Part shown: piece after piece, positions 10,887 to 19,012 of the stretch
How the letters are laid out: every line of letters begins with the position of its first letter
How positions within the stretch are numbered: the first letter of the stretch is position 1
Notes under the pieces: generated by a model
Databases searched by the model: none
Told to the model about the DNA's origin: nothing
What the model saw: the letters and a program-made list of their open reading frames with translations, nothing else
Source of the DNA: a virus
Virus genome (UHGV): UHGV-0335559
DNA: 23,334 bases
Direction: 5' to 3' (one strand)
Translations under genes and position numbers: made by a program

Positions 10887-11059
10887 TGTCAGGAGTCCTG
10901 AATAGTGATTAGAGGAGTCACATGTCGGCATCAGTTTCCCGACGATGCGCATCCTCCGCCATCAGTCCCGGATGGCTTATCACTGACACAACAGCACCTT
11001 AGCGAATCGCGGGACGCGACTCAGTAGCCTTGCCGTGTATTCATCACGGCGAGGTATTC
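10887..11059. promoter_or_regulatory. Divergent late-promoter region between O and P
   Basis: 173-bp gap between divergently transcribed O and P, as in P2 where the Ogr-activated late promoters lie. I could not find a clean TGT-N12-ACA dyad by eye, so exact elements are unassigned. Confidence 0.35.
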
Positions 11060-12829
11060 ATGACCATCACCACAGACACCACTCTTTTACACGACCCGCG
11101 TCGTCAGGCGGCGCTGCTGTACTGGCAGGGGTTTTCCGTGCCGCAGATTGCCGCCATGTTGCAGATGAAACGCCCGACGGTGCAGAGCTGGAAACAGCGC
11201 GACGGCTGGGACAGCGTTGCCCCCATCAGCCGTGTCGAAATGAGTCTGGAAGCGCGGCTGACCCAGCTCATCATCAAACCGCAGAAAACCGGCGGTGACT
11301 TCAAGGAAATTGACCTGCTCGGACGCCAGATTGAACGACTGGCACGGGTCAACCGTTACAGTCAGACCGGCAACGAGGCAGACCTTAATCCGAACGTCGC
11401 TAACCGCAACAAAGGCGGGCGTCGCAAACCGAAAAAGAATTTTTTCAGTGACGAGGCCATCGAAAAGCTGGAGCAGATTTTCTTTGAGCAGTCTTTCGAA
11501 TATCAGTTGCACTGGTATCGCGCCGGGCTTGAGCACCGCATCCGCGATATCCTGAAATCCCGCCAGATTGGCGCAACGTTTTATTTTTCCCGCGAGGCGC
11601 TGCTGCGCGCCCTGAAAACCGGTCATAACCAGATTTTTCTGTCGGCCAGTAAAACGCAGGCGTATGTGTTCCGCGAATACATCATCGCCTTTGCCCGGCT
11701 GGTTGACGTTGACCTGACCGGTGACCCGATTGTCCTGGGCAATAACGGCGCAAAACTGATTTTTCTCGGCACCAACTCCAACACCGCACAGAGCCATAAC
11801 GGTGACCTGTACGTCGACGAGATTTTCTGGATCCCGAATTTTCAGGTACTGCGTAAGGTGGCATCAGGTATGGCCTCACAGAGTCACCTGCGCTCGACCT
11901 ATTTCTCCACCCCGTCCACGCTGGCGCACGACGCCTATCCGTTCTGGTCGGGTGAACTGTTCAACCGGGGACGCGCCAGCGCCGCCGAACGCGTGGAAAT
12001 CGACGTCAGTCATAACGCCCTTGCCGGTGGGCTTCTCTGTGCGGACGGCCAGTGGCGGCAGATTGTCACCATTGAGGACGCCCTGAAAGGTGGCTGCACG
12101 CTGTTCGACATTGAGCAGCTTAAACGCGAAAACAGCGCCGACGATTTTAAAAACCTGTTCATGTGTGAATTTGTTGACGACAAGGCGTCGGTATTCCCGT
12201 TCGAGGAGCTGCAGCGCTGCATGGTCGATGTGATGGAGGAATGGGAGGACTTTGCCCCGTTCGCCGACCATCCGTTCGGCTCTCGTCCTGTCTGGATTGG
12301 CTACGACCCGTCACACACCGGCGACAGTGCCGGGTGCGTCGTGCTCGCGCCGCCGGTGGTCTCTGGTGGCAAGTTCCGCATGCTGGAGCGCCACCAGTGG
12401 AAGGGCATGGATTTTGCAGCACAGGCAGAGGGCATCCGCAAGCTGACCGAGAAATACAACGTCGAATACATCGGCATTGACGCAACCGGCCTCGGTCTCG
12501 GCGTGTTCCAGCTGGTGCGCTCATTTTACCCGGCGGCACGCGGCATCCGTTACACACCTGAAATGAAAACCGCAATGGTACTCAAGGCGAAAGACACCAT
12601 TCGCCGTGGCTGTCTGGAGTACGACGCCGGAGCAACCGACGTCACGCAGTCGTTTATGTCCATCCGCAAAACCATGACCAGCAGCGGGCGCTGCGCCACC
12701 TATGAGGCCAGCCGCACCGAGGAAGCCAGCCACGCCGATATCGCATGGGCGACCATGCACGCCCTGTTAAACGAACCGCTTTCTGCCGGTAGCGGCATGC
12801 AGCCTAAATCTATTCTGGAGTTCAACTAA
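11060..12829 (+). CDS. P: Terminase ATPase (large) subunit gpP
   Basis: Start set at MTITTDTTLLHDPRRQAALLYWQGF... with GAGG 7 nt upstream, giving 589 aa. The ORF-track start at 11030 lacks a ribosome binding site. Confidence 0.9.
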   Translation: MTITTDTTLLHDPRRQAALLYWQGFSVPQIAAMLQMKRPTVQSWKQRDGWDSVAPISRVEMSLEARLTQLIIKPQKTGGDFKEIDLLGRQIERLARVNRYSQTGNEADLNPNVANRNKGGRRKPKKNFFSDEAIEKLEQIFFEQSFEYQLHWYRAGLEHRIRDILKSRQIGATFYFSREALLRALKTGHNQIFLSASKTQAYVFREYIIAFARLVDVDLTGDPIVLGNNGAKLIFLGTNSNTAQSHNGDLYVDEIFWIPNFQVLRKVASGMASQSHLRSTYFSTPSTLAHDAYPFWSGELFNRGRASAAERVEIDVSHNALAGGLLCADGQWRQIVTIEDALKGGCTLFDIEQLKRENSADDFKNLFMCEFVDDKASVFPFEELQRCMVDVMEEWEDFAPFADHPFGSRPVWIGYDPSHTGDSAGCVVLAPPVVSGGKFRMLERHQWKGMDFAAQAEGIRKLTEKYNVEYIGIDATGLGLGVFQLVRSFYPAARGIRYTPEMKTAMVLKAKDTIRRGCLEYDAGATDVTQSFMSIRKTMTSSGRCATYEASRTEEASHADIAWATMHALLNEPLSAGSGMQPKSILEFN

Positions 12830-12830
12830 A

Positions 12831-13877
12831 ATGGGTAAACAAAAATCCCGTAAAGCCAACGCACAAAAGGCCAGCAAACCACAACAACTGACCGCCAGCG
12901 CACCGCCAAAAACGACAGCGTTCACCTTCGGCGAGCCGGTGCCGGTACTCGATAAGCGCGACATTCTGGATTACGTCGAGTGCATCAGTAACGGCAAATG
13001 GTACGAGCCGCCGGTCAGCTTCTCAGGGCTGGCAAAGAGCCTGCGCTCTGCCGTGCATCACAGCTCGCCAATTTATGTTAAGCGTAACGTGCTCGCGAGC
13101 ACCTACATTCCGCACCCGTTGTTATCCCGTCAGGATTTCAGCCGCTTTGCGCTCGATTATCTGGTGTTCGGTAACGCCTTTCTTGAGCAGCGCCACAGCG
13201 TCACCGGCCAGTTAATCAAACTGCTGGCCTCGCCAGCCAAATACACCCGACGCGGAGTCGACGATTCGATTTTCTGGTTTGTGGAAAACTTCACCCAGCC
13301 GCACGAGTTCGCGCCTGATACCGTGTTTCACCTGCTGGAGCCCGACATTAATCAGGAGATTTACGGTCTGCCGGAATATCTCAGCGCGCTTAATTCCGCT
13401 TGGCTGAATGAATCCGCGACGCTGTTCCGCCGCAAGTATTATCAGAACGGCGCGCACGCAGGCTACATCATGTATGTGACTGACCCGGCGCAGAGCGCGA
13501 CCGACGTCGAATCGCTGCGCGAGGCGATGCGCAACTCAAAAGGGCTCGGCAACTTTAAGAACCTGTTTTTCTACGCTCCCGGCGGAAAACCGGACGGCAT
13601 CAAAATCGTGCCACTGAGCGAGGTCGCCACAAAGGATGACTTTTTCAACATCAAGAAGGCCAGTGCCGCCGATCTGATGGACGCGCACCGCGTACCGTTC
13701 CAGCTCATGGGCGGCAAGCCCGAGAATATCGGTTCACTCGGTGATGTTGAGAAGGTGGCAAAGGTATTTGTGCGCAACGAGCTGTCGCCGCTACAGGACA
13801 GGTTCAGGGAGGTAAATGACTGGCTCGGCATGGAGGTCATCAGATTCAAAGAGTACACCCTCGACAACCCAGAATAA
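12831..13877 (+). CDS. Q: Portal (capsid vertex) protein gpQ
   Basis: 348-aa ORF starting 2 nt after the P stop; position and size match P2 gpQ. Confidence 0.9.
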   Translation: MGKQKSRKANAQKASKPQQLTASAPPKTTAFTFGEPVPVLDKRDILDYVECISNGKWYEPPVSFSGLAKSLRSAVHHSSPIYVKRNVLASTYIPHPLLSRQDFSRFALDYLVFGNAFLEQRHSVTGQLIKLLASPAKYTRRGVDDSIFWFVENFTQPHEFAPDTVFHLLEPDINQEIYGLPEYLSALNSAWLNESATLFRRKYYQNGAHAGYIMYVTDPAQSATDVESLREAMRNSKGLGNFKNLFFYAPGGKPDGIKIVPLSEVATKDDFFNIKKASAADLMDAHRVPFQLMGGKPENIGSLGDVEKVAKVFVRNELSPLQDRFREVNDWLGMEVIRFKEYTLDNPE

Positions 13878-13907
13878 CTTAGGCCGCCACAATCTCTGCG
13901 CTCATTA

Positions 13908-13936
13908 TTGAAGATGCAATCTGCGAAAGCTATAGT
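13908..13936 (+). promoter_or_regulatory. Candidate sigma-70 promoter for the cargo gene
   Basis: TTGAAG (13908-13913), 17-bp spacer, TATAGT (13931-13936); about 18 bp upstream of the ATG at 13955. No clear Shine-Dalgarno, so the mRNA would have a short leader. Confidence 0.45.
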
Positions 13937-13954
13937 GCATCGAATATCAAAACA

Positions 13955-14959
13955 ATGGGCGCGGAGATTAATATTTTGGAAACTGATTTTAAAATAACCC
14001 TCGAAGGTTTCGCTACTGAGCAAGAAGCAAATAATATCGGTAATTTCACACTAGAAGCTATCCGAGCTTTAACAAAAAATCTCAATCTTGATATCTCCAA
14101 ATTAAAATGCGTGATTGTTTCCTATAACTTCAGTGAAGCTCTTCAAAAGGTAACATCCTCTTACCAACACAAATCCCCTAGTTCATTTACCAATAGCAAA
14201 CAGGGCGCAGCCGTCGGGCAGTTAGTAACAAAAATTGGCAATGATGGGCTATGTGAAGAATATACCCTTGTGCTATCGATTGATTTTTTTGTTGAGCTTT
14301 TCAATGATGGTAGCTTCTTAAAACTGAAAGAAGAAGGATACCTCGCAGTCATCCATCGCATTCACCATGAATTAGTGCACGTACATGAAAAAAACTTACT
14401 AACATGCTTAGCCCAAAACTTTACAGTCAACGAGTATGGTAGCGCGCTTCTTATCTCAGCCACGCGTGCATGGTCTGAATATCTCGCTAATTACATGTCT
14501 TCGGGGTCTGCCCCTCAAGAAACTATCGATTTATTTTTAGAGAATCTTGACACTGTTGTAAATGAAGTATCTGACGAGATTGAAAAACTCATCTGGGGTT
14601 ATAAGTACGGTAATATTTCTCTGAATGACATGTATCTTGAAGTAAAAAAACGTATCAGGCTAATCATCAACTCTTATGCTTATGCGATGGGTTATGTCCA
14701 TTCTCTAAACATCAATATTAAAGAATACGATCCAAAGCTATCCCTTACACTATCCAACTCAAAGATAAGATATCAATTATCAGAATTAGGCATTGCTTTT
14801 CAGAATCTTTATGGGAAGTTTAATGACCAGCACATTACAGGTTTTGGTGATTTTCGGGAGATAACAATAATCATTGATGAAATATTCAAGCAGTTTGGGC
14901 TTGTTTTAGAGTGTCCCGATTGGTCTGGCGACGGTGAACTCTACATACATGTAAATTAG
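13955..14959 (+). CDS. Hypothetical cargo protein, 334 aa, HExxH motif (IHRIHHELVHVHEKN); no recognisable family
   Basis: Long uninterrupted ORF in an island of about one-third G+C (flanking phage genes are well above 50%). Sits between the portal gene and cos, where P2 as I recall it has only about 100 bp. No Walker A, no TM segment, no HTH that I can see. Confidence 0.6.
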   Translation: MGAEINILETDFKITLEGFATEQEANNIGNFTLEAIRALTKNLNLDISKLKCVIVSYNFSEALQKVTSSYQHKSPSSFTNSKQGAAVGQLVTKIGNDGLCEEYTLVLSIDFFVELFNDGSFLKLKEEGYLAVIHRIHHELVHVHEKNLLTCLAQNFTVNEYGSALLISATRAWSEYLANYMSSGSAPQETIDLFLENLDTVVNEVSDEIEKLIWGYKYGNISLNDMYLEVKKRIRLIINSYAYAMGYVHSLNINIKEYDPKLSLTLSNSKIRYQLSELGIAFQNLYGKFNDQHITGFGDFREITIIIDEIFKQFGLVLECPDWSGDGELYIHVN

Positions 14960-15178
14960 TTTAATCATAGTAGAAACATAATTAGCAGTTTGAATCCTGC
15001 CACTCCTGTAAAGCCGCTGCTCCTGGTGGCTTTTCCATGCACACCACCATCACGCATCAGATGCGTCTCACGCGCACGAACACACTCGACCACCAACGAA
15101 CCAGCAGCGACCACGACAGCGCCATCACGACGCGCTCAGAGGATAATTTTTATTATTACGCATCACTGCTGGCGCGCA

Positions 15179-15197
15179 ATGCTTTCCCCGCCACGCC
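15179..15197 (-). other. cos-like site (19-nt cohesive-end sequence of P2/186-type phages)
   Basis: Minus strand reads GGCGTGGCGGGGAAAGCAT, matching the 19-nt cohesive end as I recall it for 186 (P2: GGCGAGGCGGGGAAAGCAC). Its orientation relative to Q is the same as at the P2 left end. Confidence 0.55.
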
Positions 15198-15353
15198 TGC
15201 CCGCTTTATGGGGCGGTTTTAATGCAGTTGCATGACAACTCTGGATCCGCGCTAGCTCTGGCGGCGCACGGACAGAACGGGCAAGACTGACGCATGCAAA
15301 ACCATGCACCTAATGCATGCACGACTAAAAAACGGGAAATTCGCGGAAAAATG

Positions 15354-15390
15354 GCATAAAAAAACCGGCATTCAGGGTGCCGGTTTTAGT
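15354..15390. terminator. Bidirectional rho-independent terminator
   Basis: A-tract (15356-15364), 7-bp stem ACCGGCA (15364-15370) / TGCCGGT (15378-15384) with a 7-nt loop, then TTTT. U-runs follow the hairpin on both strands; it would end the minus-strand tum-like operon before cos. Confidence 0.55.
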
Positions 15391-15523
15391 CTGGTTTTGT
15401 CGCGATTAATGGCCGCGCAATGCGCCAATAACACTGTTGAGGCACATGCTGGCAACAATCATCAGAAAAATCGTCGTCCACGGATTTTCATAAACGATAG
15501 ATAACATATTTATATAGTTCCTC

Positions 15524-15808
15524 TTATTTGCGCATTCTGATGTGATTTAACAGGTGTTTGATAACGACTGATAGCTCATCTTTACCGGCCTGCTCGACCA
15601 TTTTTGCGGTGTAGCTTTCCACCTCGCGAGAGCTCAGGTCGTTATTTAAAGCCATTAAAGTCAGATTCTTTGCCCAATCGGCAAACGGGTCATTTTTCGA
15701 TGAAAGGGGATTTTGCATGTACAAAAACCTCGAATTATTTAACCAGCAGACGGTTGAAGTATTTGCGACGCTATGACCGGCTAACGCCTCGCGTAGCTCG
15801 TTGTTCAA
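15524..15808 (-). CDS. Hypothetical small protein (last gene of the SOS operon); start uncertain
   Basis: 94-aa ORF whose first codons lie inside repeat A. An internal Met at 15718 (MQNPLSSKND...) with GAGG upstream is the more likely start (64 aa). No recognisable family. Confidence 0.35.
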   Translation of the reverse strand: MNNELREALAGHSVANTSTVCWLNNSRFLYMQNPLSSKNDPFADWAKNLTLMALNNDLSSREVESYTAKMVEQAGKDELSVVIKHLLNHIRMRK

Positions 15809-15849
15809 CCCCGCCAGACCTGAAAGCGAGTTTCAGCTCCGGCGGCGTT
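15785..15849. repeat. 65-bp direct repeat, copy A (contains hairpin CTGAAA-GCGAG-TTTCAG)
   Basis: Aligns with 16190-16254 at roughly 85% identity, including identical blocks TTGTTCAACCCCGCCAG and CCGGCGGCGTT. Begins 2 nt after the stop of the 69-aa ORF on the minus strand. Confidence 0.75.
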
Positions 15850-15851
15850 AT

Positions 15852-16061
15852 CTATGGTCGACGTGGTGGCGGTGAGTAATGTGTCGGCTTGCTGATGCTA
15901 TCCAGCTTGCCGTAATTATCCCTGACTATTTCGGCACACCCGACCAGCTCGGCGGGTGTCAAATTCTCATTGACCATTATCTGCTGCAGACGATGAACGA
16001 TGGCCATCAGTTTGATGCTTTTAGTTTTGTGCTGCGGAATTTTGCCCGGTAGTCGATGCAT
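15852..16061 (-). CDS. Hypothetical 69-aa protein flanked by the two direct repeats
   Basis: ORF with GAGGG Shine-Dalgarno 7 nt upstream of the ATG at 16061. No recognisable family. Confidence 0.4.
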   Translation of the reverse strand: MHRLPGKIPQHKTKSIKLMAIVHRLQQIMVNENLTPAELVGCAEIVRDNYGKLDSISKPTHYSPPPRRP

Positions 16062-16189
16062 ATTATCGCCCTCAATGAATTTTATTTAGCGCTGCCACAG
16101 CGCCACTATAAAACCCGCTAAGGTAACGTCCCATTCATCACTGGTGTGTAACCAATAAAACATCGAGAAACTTTGAGAGGAAGAACTAG

Positions 16190-16254
16190 CGCCTCGCGGT
16201 GCGAGTTGTTCAACCCCGCCAGCACTGAAAGCAAGTTTCAGCACCGGCGGCGTT
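16190..16254. repeat. 65-bp direct repeat, copy B (contains hairpin CTGAAA-GCAAG-TTTCAG)
   Basis: Partner of 15785-15849; begins 2 nt after the stop of the DinI-like gene on the minus strand. Confidence 0.75.
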
Positions 16255-16256
16255 TG

Positions 16257-16490
16257 TTAATGCAGCCAGCTATCGTCCTCCCATACCTGCTGCATGATTT
16301 CCATTACTCGTTTTTTATCTTCGTCCAGTTTCAAACCGCTTAGTTCAACGCCATTAGCGGAGCCCTTGCGAATTCGGATAGCAGTCTTTGGGTAAATAGG
16401 TTGAAGATTGCGGTACAGTTCAGCCTCAAGTGCATCCAATGTTGCCTGACTAATTTTTTGCTCTTTATCCAACGTGATATTGATTCTCAT
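16257..16490 (-). CDS. DinI-like protein (DinI / 186 Tum C-terminal domain family)
   Basis: 77 aa, MRINITLDKEQKISQATLDALEAELYRNLQPIYP...VMEIMQQVWEDDSWLH; resembles E. coli DinI (MRIEVTIAK...ALAGELSRRIQ...) in pattern and length. Weak Shine-Dalgarno; the ATG is one codon after the in-frame stop of the upstream ORF. Confidence 0.75.
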   Translation of the reverse strand: MRINITLDKEQKISQATLDALEAELYRNLQPIYPKTAIRIRKGSANGVELSGLKLDEDKKRVMEIMQQVWEDDSWLH

Positions 16491-16493
16491 AAT

Positions 16494-16676
16494 CTAATCA
16501 GCCTTATAAAAATTATCATCTTCGGTTTCGTTATTTTCGCTGTTTGCTAGGTCTGCAATGAGAGTGAGCGCGAGCTTTAAGTCTGATGGCTTGCAGTTTG
16601 CAATCAGAGATACCTCGGCAATAAATTGCACACAAGCCCACTTTTGCTGCGTTCGGCTGAAATGTTCGCCAACCAT
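16494..16676 (-). CDS. Small protein, possible N-terminal (antirepressor) part of a Tum-like protein
   Basis: 60-aa ORF with strong Shine-Dalgarno (GGGAGGG) and a LexA box just upstream. Same reading frame as the DinI-like ORF, separated from it by a single TAG. Confidence 0.5.
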   Translation of the reverse strand: MVGEHFSRTQQKWACVQFIAEVSLIANCKPSDLKLALTLIADLANSENNETEDDNFYKAD

Positions 16677-16695
16677 GAAATCCCTCCCACAGGGT

Positions 16696-16715
16696 TACTG
16701 TATATTTATACAGTA
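16696..16715. promoter_or_regulatory. LexA box (SOS operator) overlapping the promoter of the tum/DinI-like operon
   Basis: TACTGTATATTTATACAGTA: CTGT (16698-16701), 8 nt, ACAG (16710-16713), one central mismatch to the consensus TACTGTATATATATACAGTA. Lies about 20 nt upstream of the start codon at 16676. Confidence 0.75.
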
Positions 16716-16789
16716 GCACGTATTGGCAAAAGATGGGAAGAAAAAAAACGAATAGAGCGATTGCTGTATGTGCATGATATGGATATGAA

Positions 16790-19012
16790 TTACCCATGTA
16801 TTGGTTTTGATGCTTCAGCCATCGCCGCAACACGATTAAGGATTTTCCGAGCTTTAGCCTCATGCGATGGTGCTGCGGAAAATATTTCTCCTTTGGCCGT
16901 TCCGCGTAGCCATTTACCATCAAAACAACTTTTACCACCGGCCATCAGGTGCAGGGCTTCGCCCCGGCTGATATTAATGCCGGTTGTCAGATGTATCTCA
17001 TCGATAGTTTTAGCTATAGCTGCGTTTTGCTCATCCGTTCCGTGGATGAATTTTCGCCGTGCTGCTGGCTTTTGCTTCCTGAGTCGGTTGGTCAATTCTC
17101 GTCTTTCACGCCGACTCAGTGGTTTTGTTAAATCCAGTATCGGTGGATCGCTTTCGCTTCCCGTACAGTTATTGACAGAACTCCGAGGGACGGCTTTGCC
17201 GTCCTGAAGGTCAACGGCCAAATCAACAGCACGCTTCGGAACAATCTTCCACTGAGTGAGCCGGGTTAAAATCGGGCTTCCTGCACCTATGGAGGAATCG
17301 TAGACCCCCTTAATACATACCGTTTCCTCACCGTACTGATTAAGCTCGGTGCGCGGTTCATACAGTGTGCGCACCTGTAAATCATCGCGACGGACAAACG
17401 GCCCACCCTGAGCATTAACATAACCAGCCCAGTCACCAGCGTCGGCGGCATCATGGACGGCGGCAAACTCAACGCTCAGACCGTGCGCGGTTTCGGTATC
17501 AGCGAGGCGACGCAACTCACGGTAAACCGTCACCGGCGCACCACCAATAAACTGAAACTGACGGATGTGCCAGCGCGCAGCCCATGCTGAAACGGCGGGG
17601 GCTGTCTCTTTCAGCAGCTCACCGCTTTCATCATCGGTTTCACCATCGAGAGCATAACCGTCGATATTTTTTGAAATGTATTTAGCAACATAGCCGGTTG
17701 CGCTGCCTTTCTCCGGGTCAATGGACTCGGCGTGGAAACGTGCTTTTTTGGATTTATCGCTTTTCAGTTCGTGGCGGTCTTCTTTCCATGCGTATTTACG
17801 GACGATGGAGCGAACATATTCAACATCTTCCGGCAGCATGAACATCAGCATGTGCCAGTGTGGAGTGCCGTCGTGATGGGGCTCGGCGACACGAATACCG
17901 AAAATACGGACATCTTCCCGATGTAGTTTGGCACGGATACGCGCCCAGATACCGGTTAGATAGTTTTGCGTGTCAGCCGGGCTGGCACCGCTCCATTTGC
18001 TGTTACGGTAACCGGCTTTAGTCGTGGCGTGATATTTTGACGGCGCGGTTAGAGTGTAAAACTCACCGACATAACCGAGCTCATTACAGATGTTTTCAAA
18101 CCCACGAATGCGGGTCATGAGCTCACAGCGGCGAATCGCAGGGTTAGCAACTGAGCCATCATATTTTTCAATTAGGCTGATACGGTTGCCGTCTTCGTCT
18201 TCGAGATCCAGACCTTTGAGAAATTCACGAGTGCGGCGCTTTTGTTCACGCCAGTCAGTCACGCAGTTTTTACTCGCGTAAGTGTTTTTTTTCTTACTGA
18301 CGTTGCCGACTGCAATTTGCAGGTGTTCGCGCCACGTAGCTGCAACACGGCGCAAACGACCGCGCCACCACCCATCGTTAAACATTTTGGCGATAGCCGG
18401 TGCGATTTCATCCGCACCGACATATTTTTTTTCAACCCGCTCCCAATGTGGTGGGATAACGTTGAATTGGAGGGAAATAAAGCCAGCACGAATATACCAG
18501 GTGTACAGCGTTTTAAGCTCGCCGAATCCGTGGTCATTAATGTTGGCAAGTTCACCACGAATGAAATTAGCAATATCAGCGGCCAACAGGTCAACATCAG
18601 CGCGCGACATGTCCGGGAGACGGTTATATTGGGCGACCATATTAACCATGCGTGACGACAGATATTGCATTTGCTGAGTATCAAAATGACTTCCAAAAAC
18701 AGCGGTTGATACCTTGCTGTTGATACCAGCGCATTCGTATTTTTTTGCGACCAGTTCAAGACGCGGCAATGCCTTTTTGCAGAAGCTGATTAAAAATGCA
18801 TTGGCTCGTTGACTACCCTGATTTTGCTCCAGCACCGCAGCAGTGCGATAAACATCTAACCGCACGCAGTCGGGCTGGAGAGAAAGCACCTTTTTTGCAT
18901 GCAGCAAAGCCGCGAACATACGGTCGCGGCGATGCTGTTGCTCATAAGTAAGGTATGGGCTGGAGATTGCCGACCGTGGGACGTTCCACGGATAAGCGAA
19001 TTGAACAGCCAA
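16790..19012 (-). CDS. A: Replication initiation endonuclease gpA (rolling-circle initiator)
   Basis: 740-aa ORF with HUH-type motif (EPHHDGTPHWHMLMF) and a tyrosine region (GYVAKYISKNIDGYALDG), as in the P2 A protein family. Confidence 0.9.
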   Translation of the reverse strand: MAVQFAYPWNVPRSAISSPYLTYEQQHRRDRMFAALLHAKKVLSLQPDCVRLDVYRTAAVLEQNQGSQRANAFLISFCKKALPRLELVAKKYECAGINSKVSTAVFGSHFDTQQMQYLSSRMVNMVAQYNRLPDMSRADVDLLAADIANFIRGELANINDHGFGELKTLYTWYIRAGFISLQFNVIPPHWERVEKKYVGADEIAPAIAKMFNDGWWRGRLRRVAATWREHLQIAVGNVSKKKNTYASKNCVTDWREQKRRTREFLKGLDLEDEDGNRISLIEKYDGSVANPAIRRCELMTRIRGFENICNELGYVGEFYTLTAPSKYHATTKAGYRNSKWSGASPADTQNYLTGIWARIRAKLHREDVRIFGIRVAEPHHDGTPHWHMLMFMLPEDVEYVRSIVRKYAWKEDRHELKSDKSKKARFHAESIDPEKGSATGYVAKYISKNIDGYALDGETDDESGELLKETAPAVSAWAARWHIRQFQFIGGAPVTVYRELRRLADTETAHGLSVEFAAVHDAADAGDWAGYVNAQGGPFVRRDDLQVRTLYEPRTELNQYGEETVCIKGVYDSSIGAGSPILTRLTQWKIVPKRAVDLAVDLQDGKAVPRSSVNNCTGSESDPPILDLTKPLSRRERRELTNRLRKQKPAARRKFIHGTDEQNAAIAKTIDEIHLTTGINISRGEALHLMAGGKSCFDGKWLRGTAKGEIFSAAPSHEAKARKILNRVAAMAEASKPIHG

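Follow-up and report, generated by a model that had tools for sequence, protein, structure and literature searches.

The 23,334-nucleotide viral genome sequence UHGV-0335559, referred to here as the window (the whole stretch of DNA that was analysed), is part of a 186-like prophage of the P2 family. Just downstream of its portal gene it carries an AT-rich cassette with one gene, whose product is very probably a gluzincin-type metallopeptidase. Positions of the features under discussion are collected in Table 1. A sequence-only reading of the window had placed the end of the portal gene and a cos-like 19-mer on either side of an AT-rich, single-gene block of about 1.3 kb, and both landmarks and the block itself were confirmed by the open reading frame (ORF) list and by matches to phage 186. 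The 19-mer reads ATGCTTTCCCCGCCACGCC and equals, in the window's orientation, the final 19 bases of the phage 186 record, which are annotated there as cos. The portal stop codon and cos are separated by 1301 bp, as compared with 176 bp in 186, and a single long ORF lies between them.

Boundaries and composition of the cassette

In a BLAST comparison with phage 186, nucleotide identity is 95% up to 13877, where the portal gene ends and homology stops; homology restarts at 15024 and continues to cos. When diverged copies of the cassette were aligned together with 186, homology was found to return near 15010, at the AAGCCGC stem of the late terminator tW. From the break at 13877 and the retained tW stem, the cassette is therefore taken to run from 13878 to approximately 15009. 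It replaces the ~20 bp that separate the portal stop codon from the tW stem in 186, where the annotated terminator begins within 9 nt of that stop. The difference in base composition is pronounced: G+C content is 37.5% for the cargo gene and 37.7% for the cassette, against 52.5% for the window and 55.7% for the portal gene, and G+C at third codon positions is 36% in the cargo gene versus 71% in the portal gene. Sliding-window G+C values fall to 0.34-0.42 over the cargo ORF, as opposed to about 0.55-0.58 in the portal gene.

Table 1. Features of the window around the portal gene, the cargo cassette and cos (aa, amino acids)
Feature	Position	Strand	Basis
Terminase gene	11030-12829	+	ORF list, Pfam scan
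Portal gene (P2 Q / 186 W homologue), left boundary of the insertion	12831-13877	+	ORF; Pfam Phage_portal
Inserted AT-rich cargo cassette, absent from phage 186	13878-15009		BLAST and multiple alignment against 186
Sigma-70-like promoter candidate, TTGAAG-17-TATAGT	13908-13936	+	9/12 consensus match; conservation
Longest ORF, 334 aa, gluzincin-like protein; probable coding sequence 13976-14959 (TTG start, 327 aa)	13955-14959	+	
Shine-Dalgarno sequence GGAG, 9 nt 5′ of TTG 13976	13963-13966	+	sequence; invariant in 11 copies
Codons H138-E139-L-V-H142 (HExxH; predicted zinc ligands and catalytic base), predicted helix 126-148	14366-14380	+	
Codon E175 (WSEY motif), predicted third zinc ligand, helix 160-185	14477-14479	+	
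Retained late terminator, 186 tW equivalent, 3′ of the cargo gene	15010-15035	+	alignment with annotated 186 tW; folding
cos cohesive-end 19-mer, right-hand landmark	15179-15197		identical to annotated phage 186 cos
DinI/Tum-like gene	16257-16490		ORF, Pfam scan
GPA-family replication gene	16790-19012	-	ORF, Pfam scan

The cassette encodes a probable gluzincin of a new family

One motif had originally been noticed in the protein, an HExxH (HELVH), and nothing else in it could be placed. The motif is genuine, since its H, E and H residues are invariant in 33 close and 76 distant members of the family and lie within a predicted zincin fold. Residues invariant in the close family (334-aa numbering) include H137, H138, E139, H142, E145, N147 and W173-S174-E175-Y176. 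When the 76 distant members, which have 16-50% identity, were aligned, only four columns remained invariant, namely the three HExxH residues H, E and H together with the WSEY Glu. AlphaFold, given the alignment of the family, produced a confident model (pLDDT 90.7, pTM 0.89) in which an N-terminal beta-sheet region is followed by the HExxH helix and then by a long helix bearing E175.

Gluzincins (clan MA) are defined by an HExxH motif together with a Glu on the helix that comes next. The model has the expected zincin catalytic-domain fold, a mixed beta-sheet followed by active-site helices, with HExxH on one predicted alpha-helix and the Glu on the next, the 'glutamate helix'. We consider the protein very likely to be a gluzincin-type metallopeptidase. 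Judging from fold and motif, it would bind zinc and act as a protease, with the metal held by H138, H142 and E175, and with E139 serving as the catalytic base.

Scans of the protein with Pfam, NCBIfam and PADLOC matched no model above any curated cut-off, and neither Pfam nor NCBIfam linked it to a housekeeping family. In PHROGs the family is number 11743, 'unknown function', and the two other PHROGs matches are fragments (28537 and 30021, which cover the first 112 and the last 154 residues of the protein). Comparison of the 76 relatives with Pfam gave two marginal matches to Peptidase_Mx1 (E = 0.0025) and otherwise scattered matches at the level of chance, and profile searches of PDB sequences returned coiled-coil noise only and no peptidase. 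Since Foldseek searches with the model produced nothing significant in the PDB or in BFVD, where one marginal 'Peptidase' match had an E of 0.012, the relationship is distant; the C-terminal helical half (about residues 188-334) had no significant structural match. We conclude with high confidence that the protein represents a new, undescribed and unannotated family of gluzincin-type zinc peptidases.

The ratio of nonsynonymous to synonymous substitution (dN/dS) is 0.17-0.30 when the gene is compared with copies at a dS of 0.07-0.34, and 0.01-0.05 for the adjacent portal gene. The cargo gene is under purifying selection, looser than that on the portal gene.

Translation start and transcriptional setting

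The 334-aa ORF noted earlier exists, and its true start is probably the TTG at 13976, which yields 327 aa. Four observations lead to this assignment: the 327-aa form is the one annotated by the Prokaryotic Genome Annotation Pipeline, TTG 13976 corresponds to the start of most of the distant homologues, residues 1-7 of the longer form are disordered in the model (pLDDT <50), and the ATG at 13955 has no ribosome-binding site.

The promoter candidate had been described as near-consensus. The sequence is present as reported, but the description overstates it: five matches of 9/12 quality were observed in this AT-rich stretch, compared with 3.4 ± 2.0 in shuffled sequences. Because the resemblance to consensus is not above chance, only conservation argues for the candidate. 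Among 11 copies with ~10% divergence the −35 hexamer never varies and the −10 hexamer differs in a single copy, where it reads TATAGA; leader positions near the promoter vary among these copies, and TTG 13976 is conserved.

No terminator-like site precedes the cargo gene on the + strand, and the cassette has no terminator of its own. The tW hairpin (AAGCCGC...GCGGCTTTT) has been kept and, in the multiple alignment, now lies 3′ of the cargo gene. In the window the hairpin has a stem of 9 bp with a U run behind it (−11.7 kcal/mol, z = −2.8), and is weaker than its counterpart in 186 (−15.1 kcal/mol). Given that the cassette sits between the portal stop codon and tW with no terminator ahead of it, late transcripts should read through the cargo gene, which is probably also transcribed late in lytic growth as an extension of the terminase-portal transcripts. 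The suggestion that the gene could be expressed independently in the lysogen was therefore too strong, as the cassette lies inside the late portal transcription unit.

The cassette occupies the portal-proximal edge of a known hotspot

The interval between gpA and gpQ is a documented defence hotspot of P2-like phages (Rousset et al. 2022, PMC9122126). The cargo gene is located within it, between the portal and GPA genes and beside cos, and its insertion site is the portal-proximal edge of this hotspot, not a new location. Comparison with relatives bore out the proposal that the site is variable. Phages 186, PSP3, SEN1 and EtG and a set of Yersinia phages run from portal to cos without an insert, as do many prophages. 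In E. coli sibling prophages, some of which have an identical portal protein (WP_000517961.1), the site is empty or holds a DUF2188 gene, an nSTAND1 NTPase gene or two unknown genes. The NTPase gene, found in E. coli 52F4 with the identical portal protein, is on the opposite strand and encodes 404 aa (L044:4326-5543); the gene pair in E. coli 40EC, also on the opposite strand, encodes proteins of 240 and 271 aa with no Pfam match (L045:6309-7849).

All copies with 88-100% identity, in genomes and in IMG/VR contigs, begin exactly 80 bp past the portal gene. In P2-like phages, homologues with 51-59% identity lie between an ogr/delta gene, itself preceded by the portal gene, and the replication gene. 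The portals of these carriers are 33-35% identical to that of the window, and portal and terminase together span 33-40%. The presence of homologues at the equivalent site in such divergent phages indicates that the cassette has moved among P2-like lineages while keeping its site. The Ogr/Delta-type late activator gene between the portal and zincin genes was seen at four loci (L039:7619-7945, L042:7627-7953, L036:9639-9965 and L038:8862-9188), from Yersinia and metagenomes, and this placement, in a divergent P2-like lineage, is unusual relative to P2.

The gene is accessory and its family is broadly distributed

A word-indexed search recovered 78 relatives, from Enterobacterales, Shewanella and Psychromonas, with identities of 42-100%. 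When 1.84 billion cluster representatives were searched exhaustively with a profile, the family grew to at least 355 clusters (50% identity) at E ≤ 1e-3, most of whose members are single-domain proteins of about 310-340 aa. The family ranges from Enterobacteriaceae to marine gammaproteobacteria and alphaproteobacteria, and in every case seen the source name was "hypothetical" or "uncharacterised". The family was not found in the literature on zinc-metalloprotease or gluzincin defence systems that we covered, which did not include subscription journals, so that a prior characterisation is possible.

The gene is accessory and not part of the phage core. It is present in 26 of 5426 complete E. 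coli genomes, 253 of which match the flanking portal-cos sequences, and among 50,697 phage records the sole carrier is Escherichia phage vB_EcoM-613R3, one of 38 whose sequence matches the region. The exact sequence occurs on >800 contigs.

Members with at least 40% identity have genes of 27-39% G+C in every host (L003, L004, L010, L015-L018 and L021 versus L005, L013, L027, L036, L039 and L042). Such values blend into the genomes of marine gammaproteobacteria and Gilliamella (34-41%) and lie 13-17 points below those of enterobacterial prophages, which fits an origin of the gene in a low-GC gene pool. Distant alphaproteobacterial members have 52-61% G+C.

Several disrupted copies were noted. 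A 113-aa fragment (WP_000500607.1) is found on 40 contigs, the match in TW10598 (NZ_CP035846.1) falls one base short of the query and carries a two-gene annotation, and an IMG/VR copy carries an indel (L032:10001-11002). Repeated inactivation may mean that the gene is costly. In E. coli MB06232, which has a 100% identical cassette, the prophage is decayed, its major capsid gene and a tail assembly gene being truncated and fused as pseudogenes (L001:15285-16086), yet the zincin gene is intact.

Homologues outside P2-like phages often lie near defence genes

Beyond the P2-like phages, the homologue in Psychromonas marina is part of a type I restriction-modification island; that in Colwellia adjoins a CAP12-PCTIR TIR protein, with a Shedu SduA_C protein nearby; that in Shewanella is accompanied by a NERD protein; and that in Serratia fonticola by a resolvase and a HEPN protein. 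In Vibrio the neighbours are TPR-GreAB-C-PIN, a STAND-like ATPase and the PADLOC candidate PDC-S32. Among distant members, P0233 is found with an NB-ARC STAND protein and a HEPN protein, and P0257 with a retron-like reverse transcriptase/PRTase, AAA_21 and HEPN-MNT on a ParAB element. Mobile settings were also seen in Kosakonia (a prophage edge with a YafO toxin), Paracoccus (a mobilisable element) and Gilliamella (a prophage). Recurrence of defence islands, together with the hotspot location, adds support to a role in defence.

An all-versus-all comparison of ORFs within 3 kb of the gene at 20 loci revealed no partner gene; only P2 core genes were in common. With no other neighbour shared between contexts, we take the gene to work alone. 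Two members that are 59% and about 24% identical to the protein (L041:7042-10627 and L046:8001-14922) each lie near a resolvase gene and a gene for a 430-445-aa protein with a weak match to HEPN_Swt1. These HEPN_Swt1-like neighbours were considered as a conserved partner and rejected, since they have only a 41-residue motif stretch in common (E = 0.005); a resolvase-borne island type common to both loci is possible.

Zot-type genes are found within 3 kb of two marine homologues (about 42% and 49% identical). In the first (L006:3948-9376) the zincin gene lies just 3′ of a module from a CTX-like filamentous prophage (RstA/Rep_trans, RstB, Zot), and an integrase gene is located further on. In the second (L016:13029-14117) a Zot homologue is located 3′ of the zincin gene, and it is from Zot only that a filamentous prophage is deduced. 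These arrangements suggest that filamentous phages, or the sites at which they integrate, are further carriers of the cassette. In Vibrio sp. ES.051 (L018:792-9738) the predicted TPR-GreAB-C-PIN system (1384 aa and 622 aa) and the 813-aa STAND-like ATPase are directly 5′ of the homologue, and downstream of it come the PDC-S32 protein and the reverse transcriptase of a group II intron.

Comparison with known systems

Lit of e14 is the textbook abortive-infection protease and cleaves EF-Tu when the T4 Gol peptide appears. Like the protein described here, whose activity is predicted, it is a cytoplasmic zinc protease of the HExxH type, about 300 aa long and encoded by a single prophage-borne gene that has no partner; the two differ in host element and insertion site. 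Membership of the Lit family, Peptidase_U49 (PF10463), was examined and rejected: hhalign aligned 19 columns around HExxH only, at a probability of 16%, and K-12 Lit matches PF10463 at 1.7e-112, whereas neither our protein nor any of the 76 relatives matches it. As far as sequence comparison can tell, Lit is the closest functional analogue and not a homologue.

The described gluzincins, among which we considered M1 aminopeptidases, M4 thermolysin, M9 collagenase and M30 hyicolysin/lugdulysin, share 9-12% identity with the protein, and no corresponding Pfam match was found here. HExxH and the Glu are separated by 32 residues in the new family, as opposed to 18-19 in M1 and M4. The GxMEN exopeptidase motif of M1 was not evident in either family consensus, although it was not formally searched. 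Unlike the described gluzincins, the protein is small, cytoplasmic and encoded alone, and its helical C-terminal half is without a significant structural match.

M78 peptidases, such as the 'Peptidase + TM' system of pFR104, are likewise HExxH metallopeptidases carried in the P2 hotspot. The pFR104 peptidase, however, has 160 aa, a HELAHH motif and a transmembrane partner, as compared with about 327 aa and no partner here. Assignment to M78 (ImmA/IrrE) was rejected, as there was no match to an M78 model for the protein or the 76 relatives and no conserved helix-turn-helix (HTH) neighbour.

Known cargo of the gpA-gpQ hotspot (old, tin, DUF4238 and DprA-PRTase, among others) shares with the cassette an interval beside cos, a presence/absence pattern and a compact size. 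The difference lies in geometry: here the cargo lies between the portal gene and cos, ahead of the late terminator, whereas P2 old and tin are on the gpA side. In Rousset et al. 2022, sequences cloned from P2-type hotspots have the order portal end, terminator, cos, and then cargo. Searches by accession and contig of the part of its supplementary tables that was accessible did not find the family.

Proposed function and alternatives

We read the cassette as a mobile one-gene 'moron' that has entered the known gpQ-gpA hotspot of P2/186 at the edge nearest the portal gene, and the encoded protein as a candidate stand-alone anti-phage defence protease in the lysogen. For this reading as a whole, in which the role in defence is one that we infer from context only, we regard the case as evenly balanced. 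The protein would be a cytoplasmic enzyme that is made in the lysogen and stays latent until a competing phage infects. On infection it would cleave either an essential host protein, leading to abortive infection as with e14 Lit and EF-Tu, or a phage protein, and the C-terminal helical half is a candidate for the sensing or gating part. That the mechanism is specifically Lit-like and abortive, a proposal made by analogy, seems rather doubtful. Every testable part of the sequence-only reading held, and its interpretation as a whole is partly supported.

A number of points weigh against a defence protease. For any single gene, an argument from its neighbours is weak, and cargo other than defence genes is found in hotspots too; family members in Bradyrhizobium and, beside PutA, in Marinarcus are in uninformative or housekeeping contexts. 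No PADLOC model meaningfully matches the protein or any of the 76 relatives, the best Foldseek match to the model in the PDB has an E of 0.09, and the promoter is no closer to consensus than expected by chance. Probable late lytic expression of the cargo would fit a role in the service of the phage. Finally, Rousset et al. 2022 did not include the family in the set of P2-hotspot systems that they tested.

The first alternative is that the cargo is unrelated to phage conflict and confers some other benefit on the lysogen, such as stress tolerance or protein turnover, or is a toxic selfish gene or an inter-bacterial effector. P2 hotspots do hold non-defence genes, including partition systems and toxins (PMC9122126). 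Copies in Serratia and Kosakonia are near genes related to type VI secretion (Hcp, DUF4225, Tlde1 domain), and disrupted copies are fairly common, suggesting a cost. Yet the model is a compact soluble globule with no hydrophobic N-terminal stretch seen (no signal-peptide predictor was run), there is no conserved adjacent immunity-like partner, and neighbours with recognisable defence domains recur across unrelated taxa too often to be passed over. We consider it unlikely.

A second possibility, quite unlikely in our estimation, is that the protease serves the phage itself, being co-transcribed with the late terminase-portal operon and acting in lytic growth, for example in the degradation of host defence proteins, in host takeover, or in attack on a co-resident competitor such as a P4-type satellite. 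It is favoured by the position of the cassette between the portal stop codon and the retained tW, with no + strand terminator-like site ahead, and by the retention of this portal-adjacent position in P2-like lineages with portals that are 33-35% identical. A P4-type satellite, moreover, uses the same cos and capsid, and cos is the only region that P2 and P4 have in common (PMC9122126). Against it, many homologues reside in defence islands of the chromosome or are carried by non-phage elements, away from any late operon, late expression would be badly timed against host defences, and most 186/P2-like phages do without the gene.

It is very unlikely that the zincin fold serves a hydrolase other than a protease, for example a metal-dependent nuclease of the YbeY type or an amidase. 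Least probable is a mobile-element regulatory protease of the ImmA/IrrE (M78) type, which would govern induction or transfer through cleavage of a repressor or antirepressor. In its favour, mobile elements commonly carry HExxH proteases paired with HTH repressors, the Paracoccus homologue has a divergent upstream 290-aa HTH_3 neighbour and this prophage carries a CI repressor and the DinI/Tum-like gene, but no HTH partner is conserved across contexts, most 186-like prophages regulate normally without the gene, and a protein of about 320 aa with a large helical domain and no similarity to M78 models contrasts with the roughly 160-aa M78 peptidase of the P2 hotspot.

If a stand-alone defence protease is the correct description, two extensions can be considered. 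Solo gluzincins may be widespread, unrecognised one-protein immune sensors and effectors, independent of Lit, in which the C-terminal helical domain would read a phage cue and unlock the protease, a generalisation that we advance tentatively and hold somewhat short of probable. In addition, since the portal-side, pre-terminator position is kept in divergent P2-like phages, the protease may also be deployed in the late phase of the helper phage against co-infecting phages or cos-sharing P4-type satellites.

To our knowledge, few of the bacterial defences characterised so far are stand-alone proteases that sense infection; for decades the main example has been Lit, which belongs to a narrow family. 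The present family would be a second zincin family, unrelated to Lit, that is broad and compact (about 1 kb), with a confident model and four obvious residues to mutate. Should it protect against phages, it would add a new type of effector and sensor to the defence catalogue, offer an easy system in which to find a phage trigger and a proteolytic target that are both new, and help to account for the P2-hotspot cargo, a large fraction of which lacks annotation. Should it give no protection, it would be one more hypothetical moron in a hotspot known to be variable. What is new here is the protein family, a solo gluzincin with a consistent conflict-system neighbourhood, together with the pre-terminator geometry of insertion; the hotspot location and the existence of single-gene defence candidates in prophage hotspots were already known. 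We regard the cassette as a real feature and a sound defence candidate that will not surprise specialists.

The gpA side of cos

On the other side of cos (15198-16789), where a Pfam scan recognised no defence gene, the prophage carries small minus-strand ORFs of 93, 68 and 59 aa with no Pfam match, in addition to the DinI/Tum-like gene. Two terminator-like hairpins were found there, one directly after cos (15197-15216) and the other at 15361-15387.

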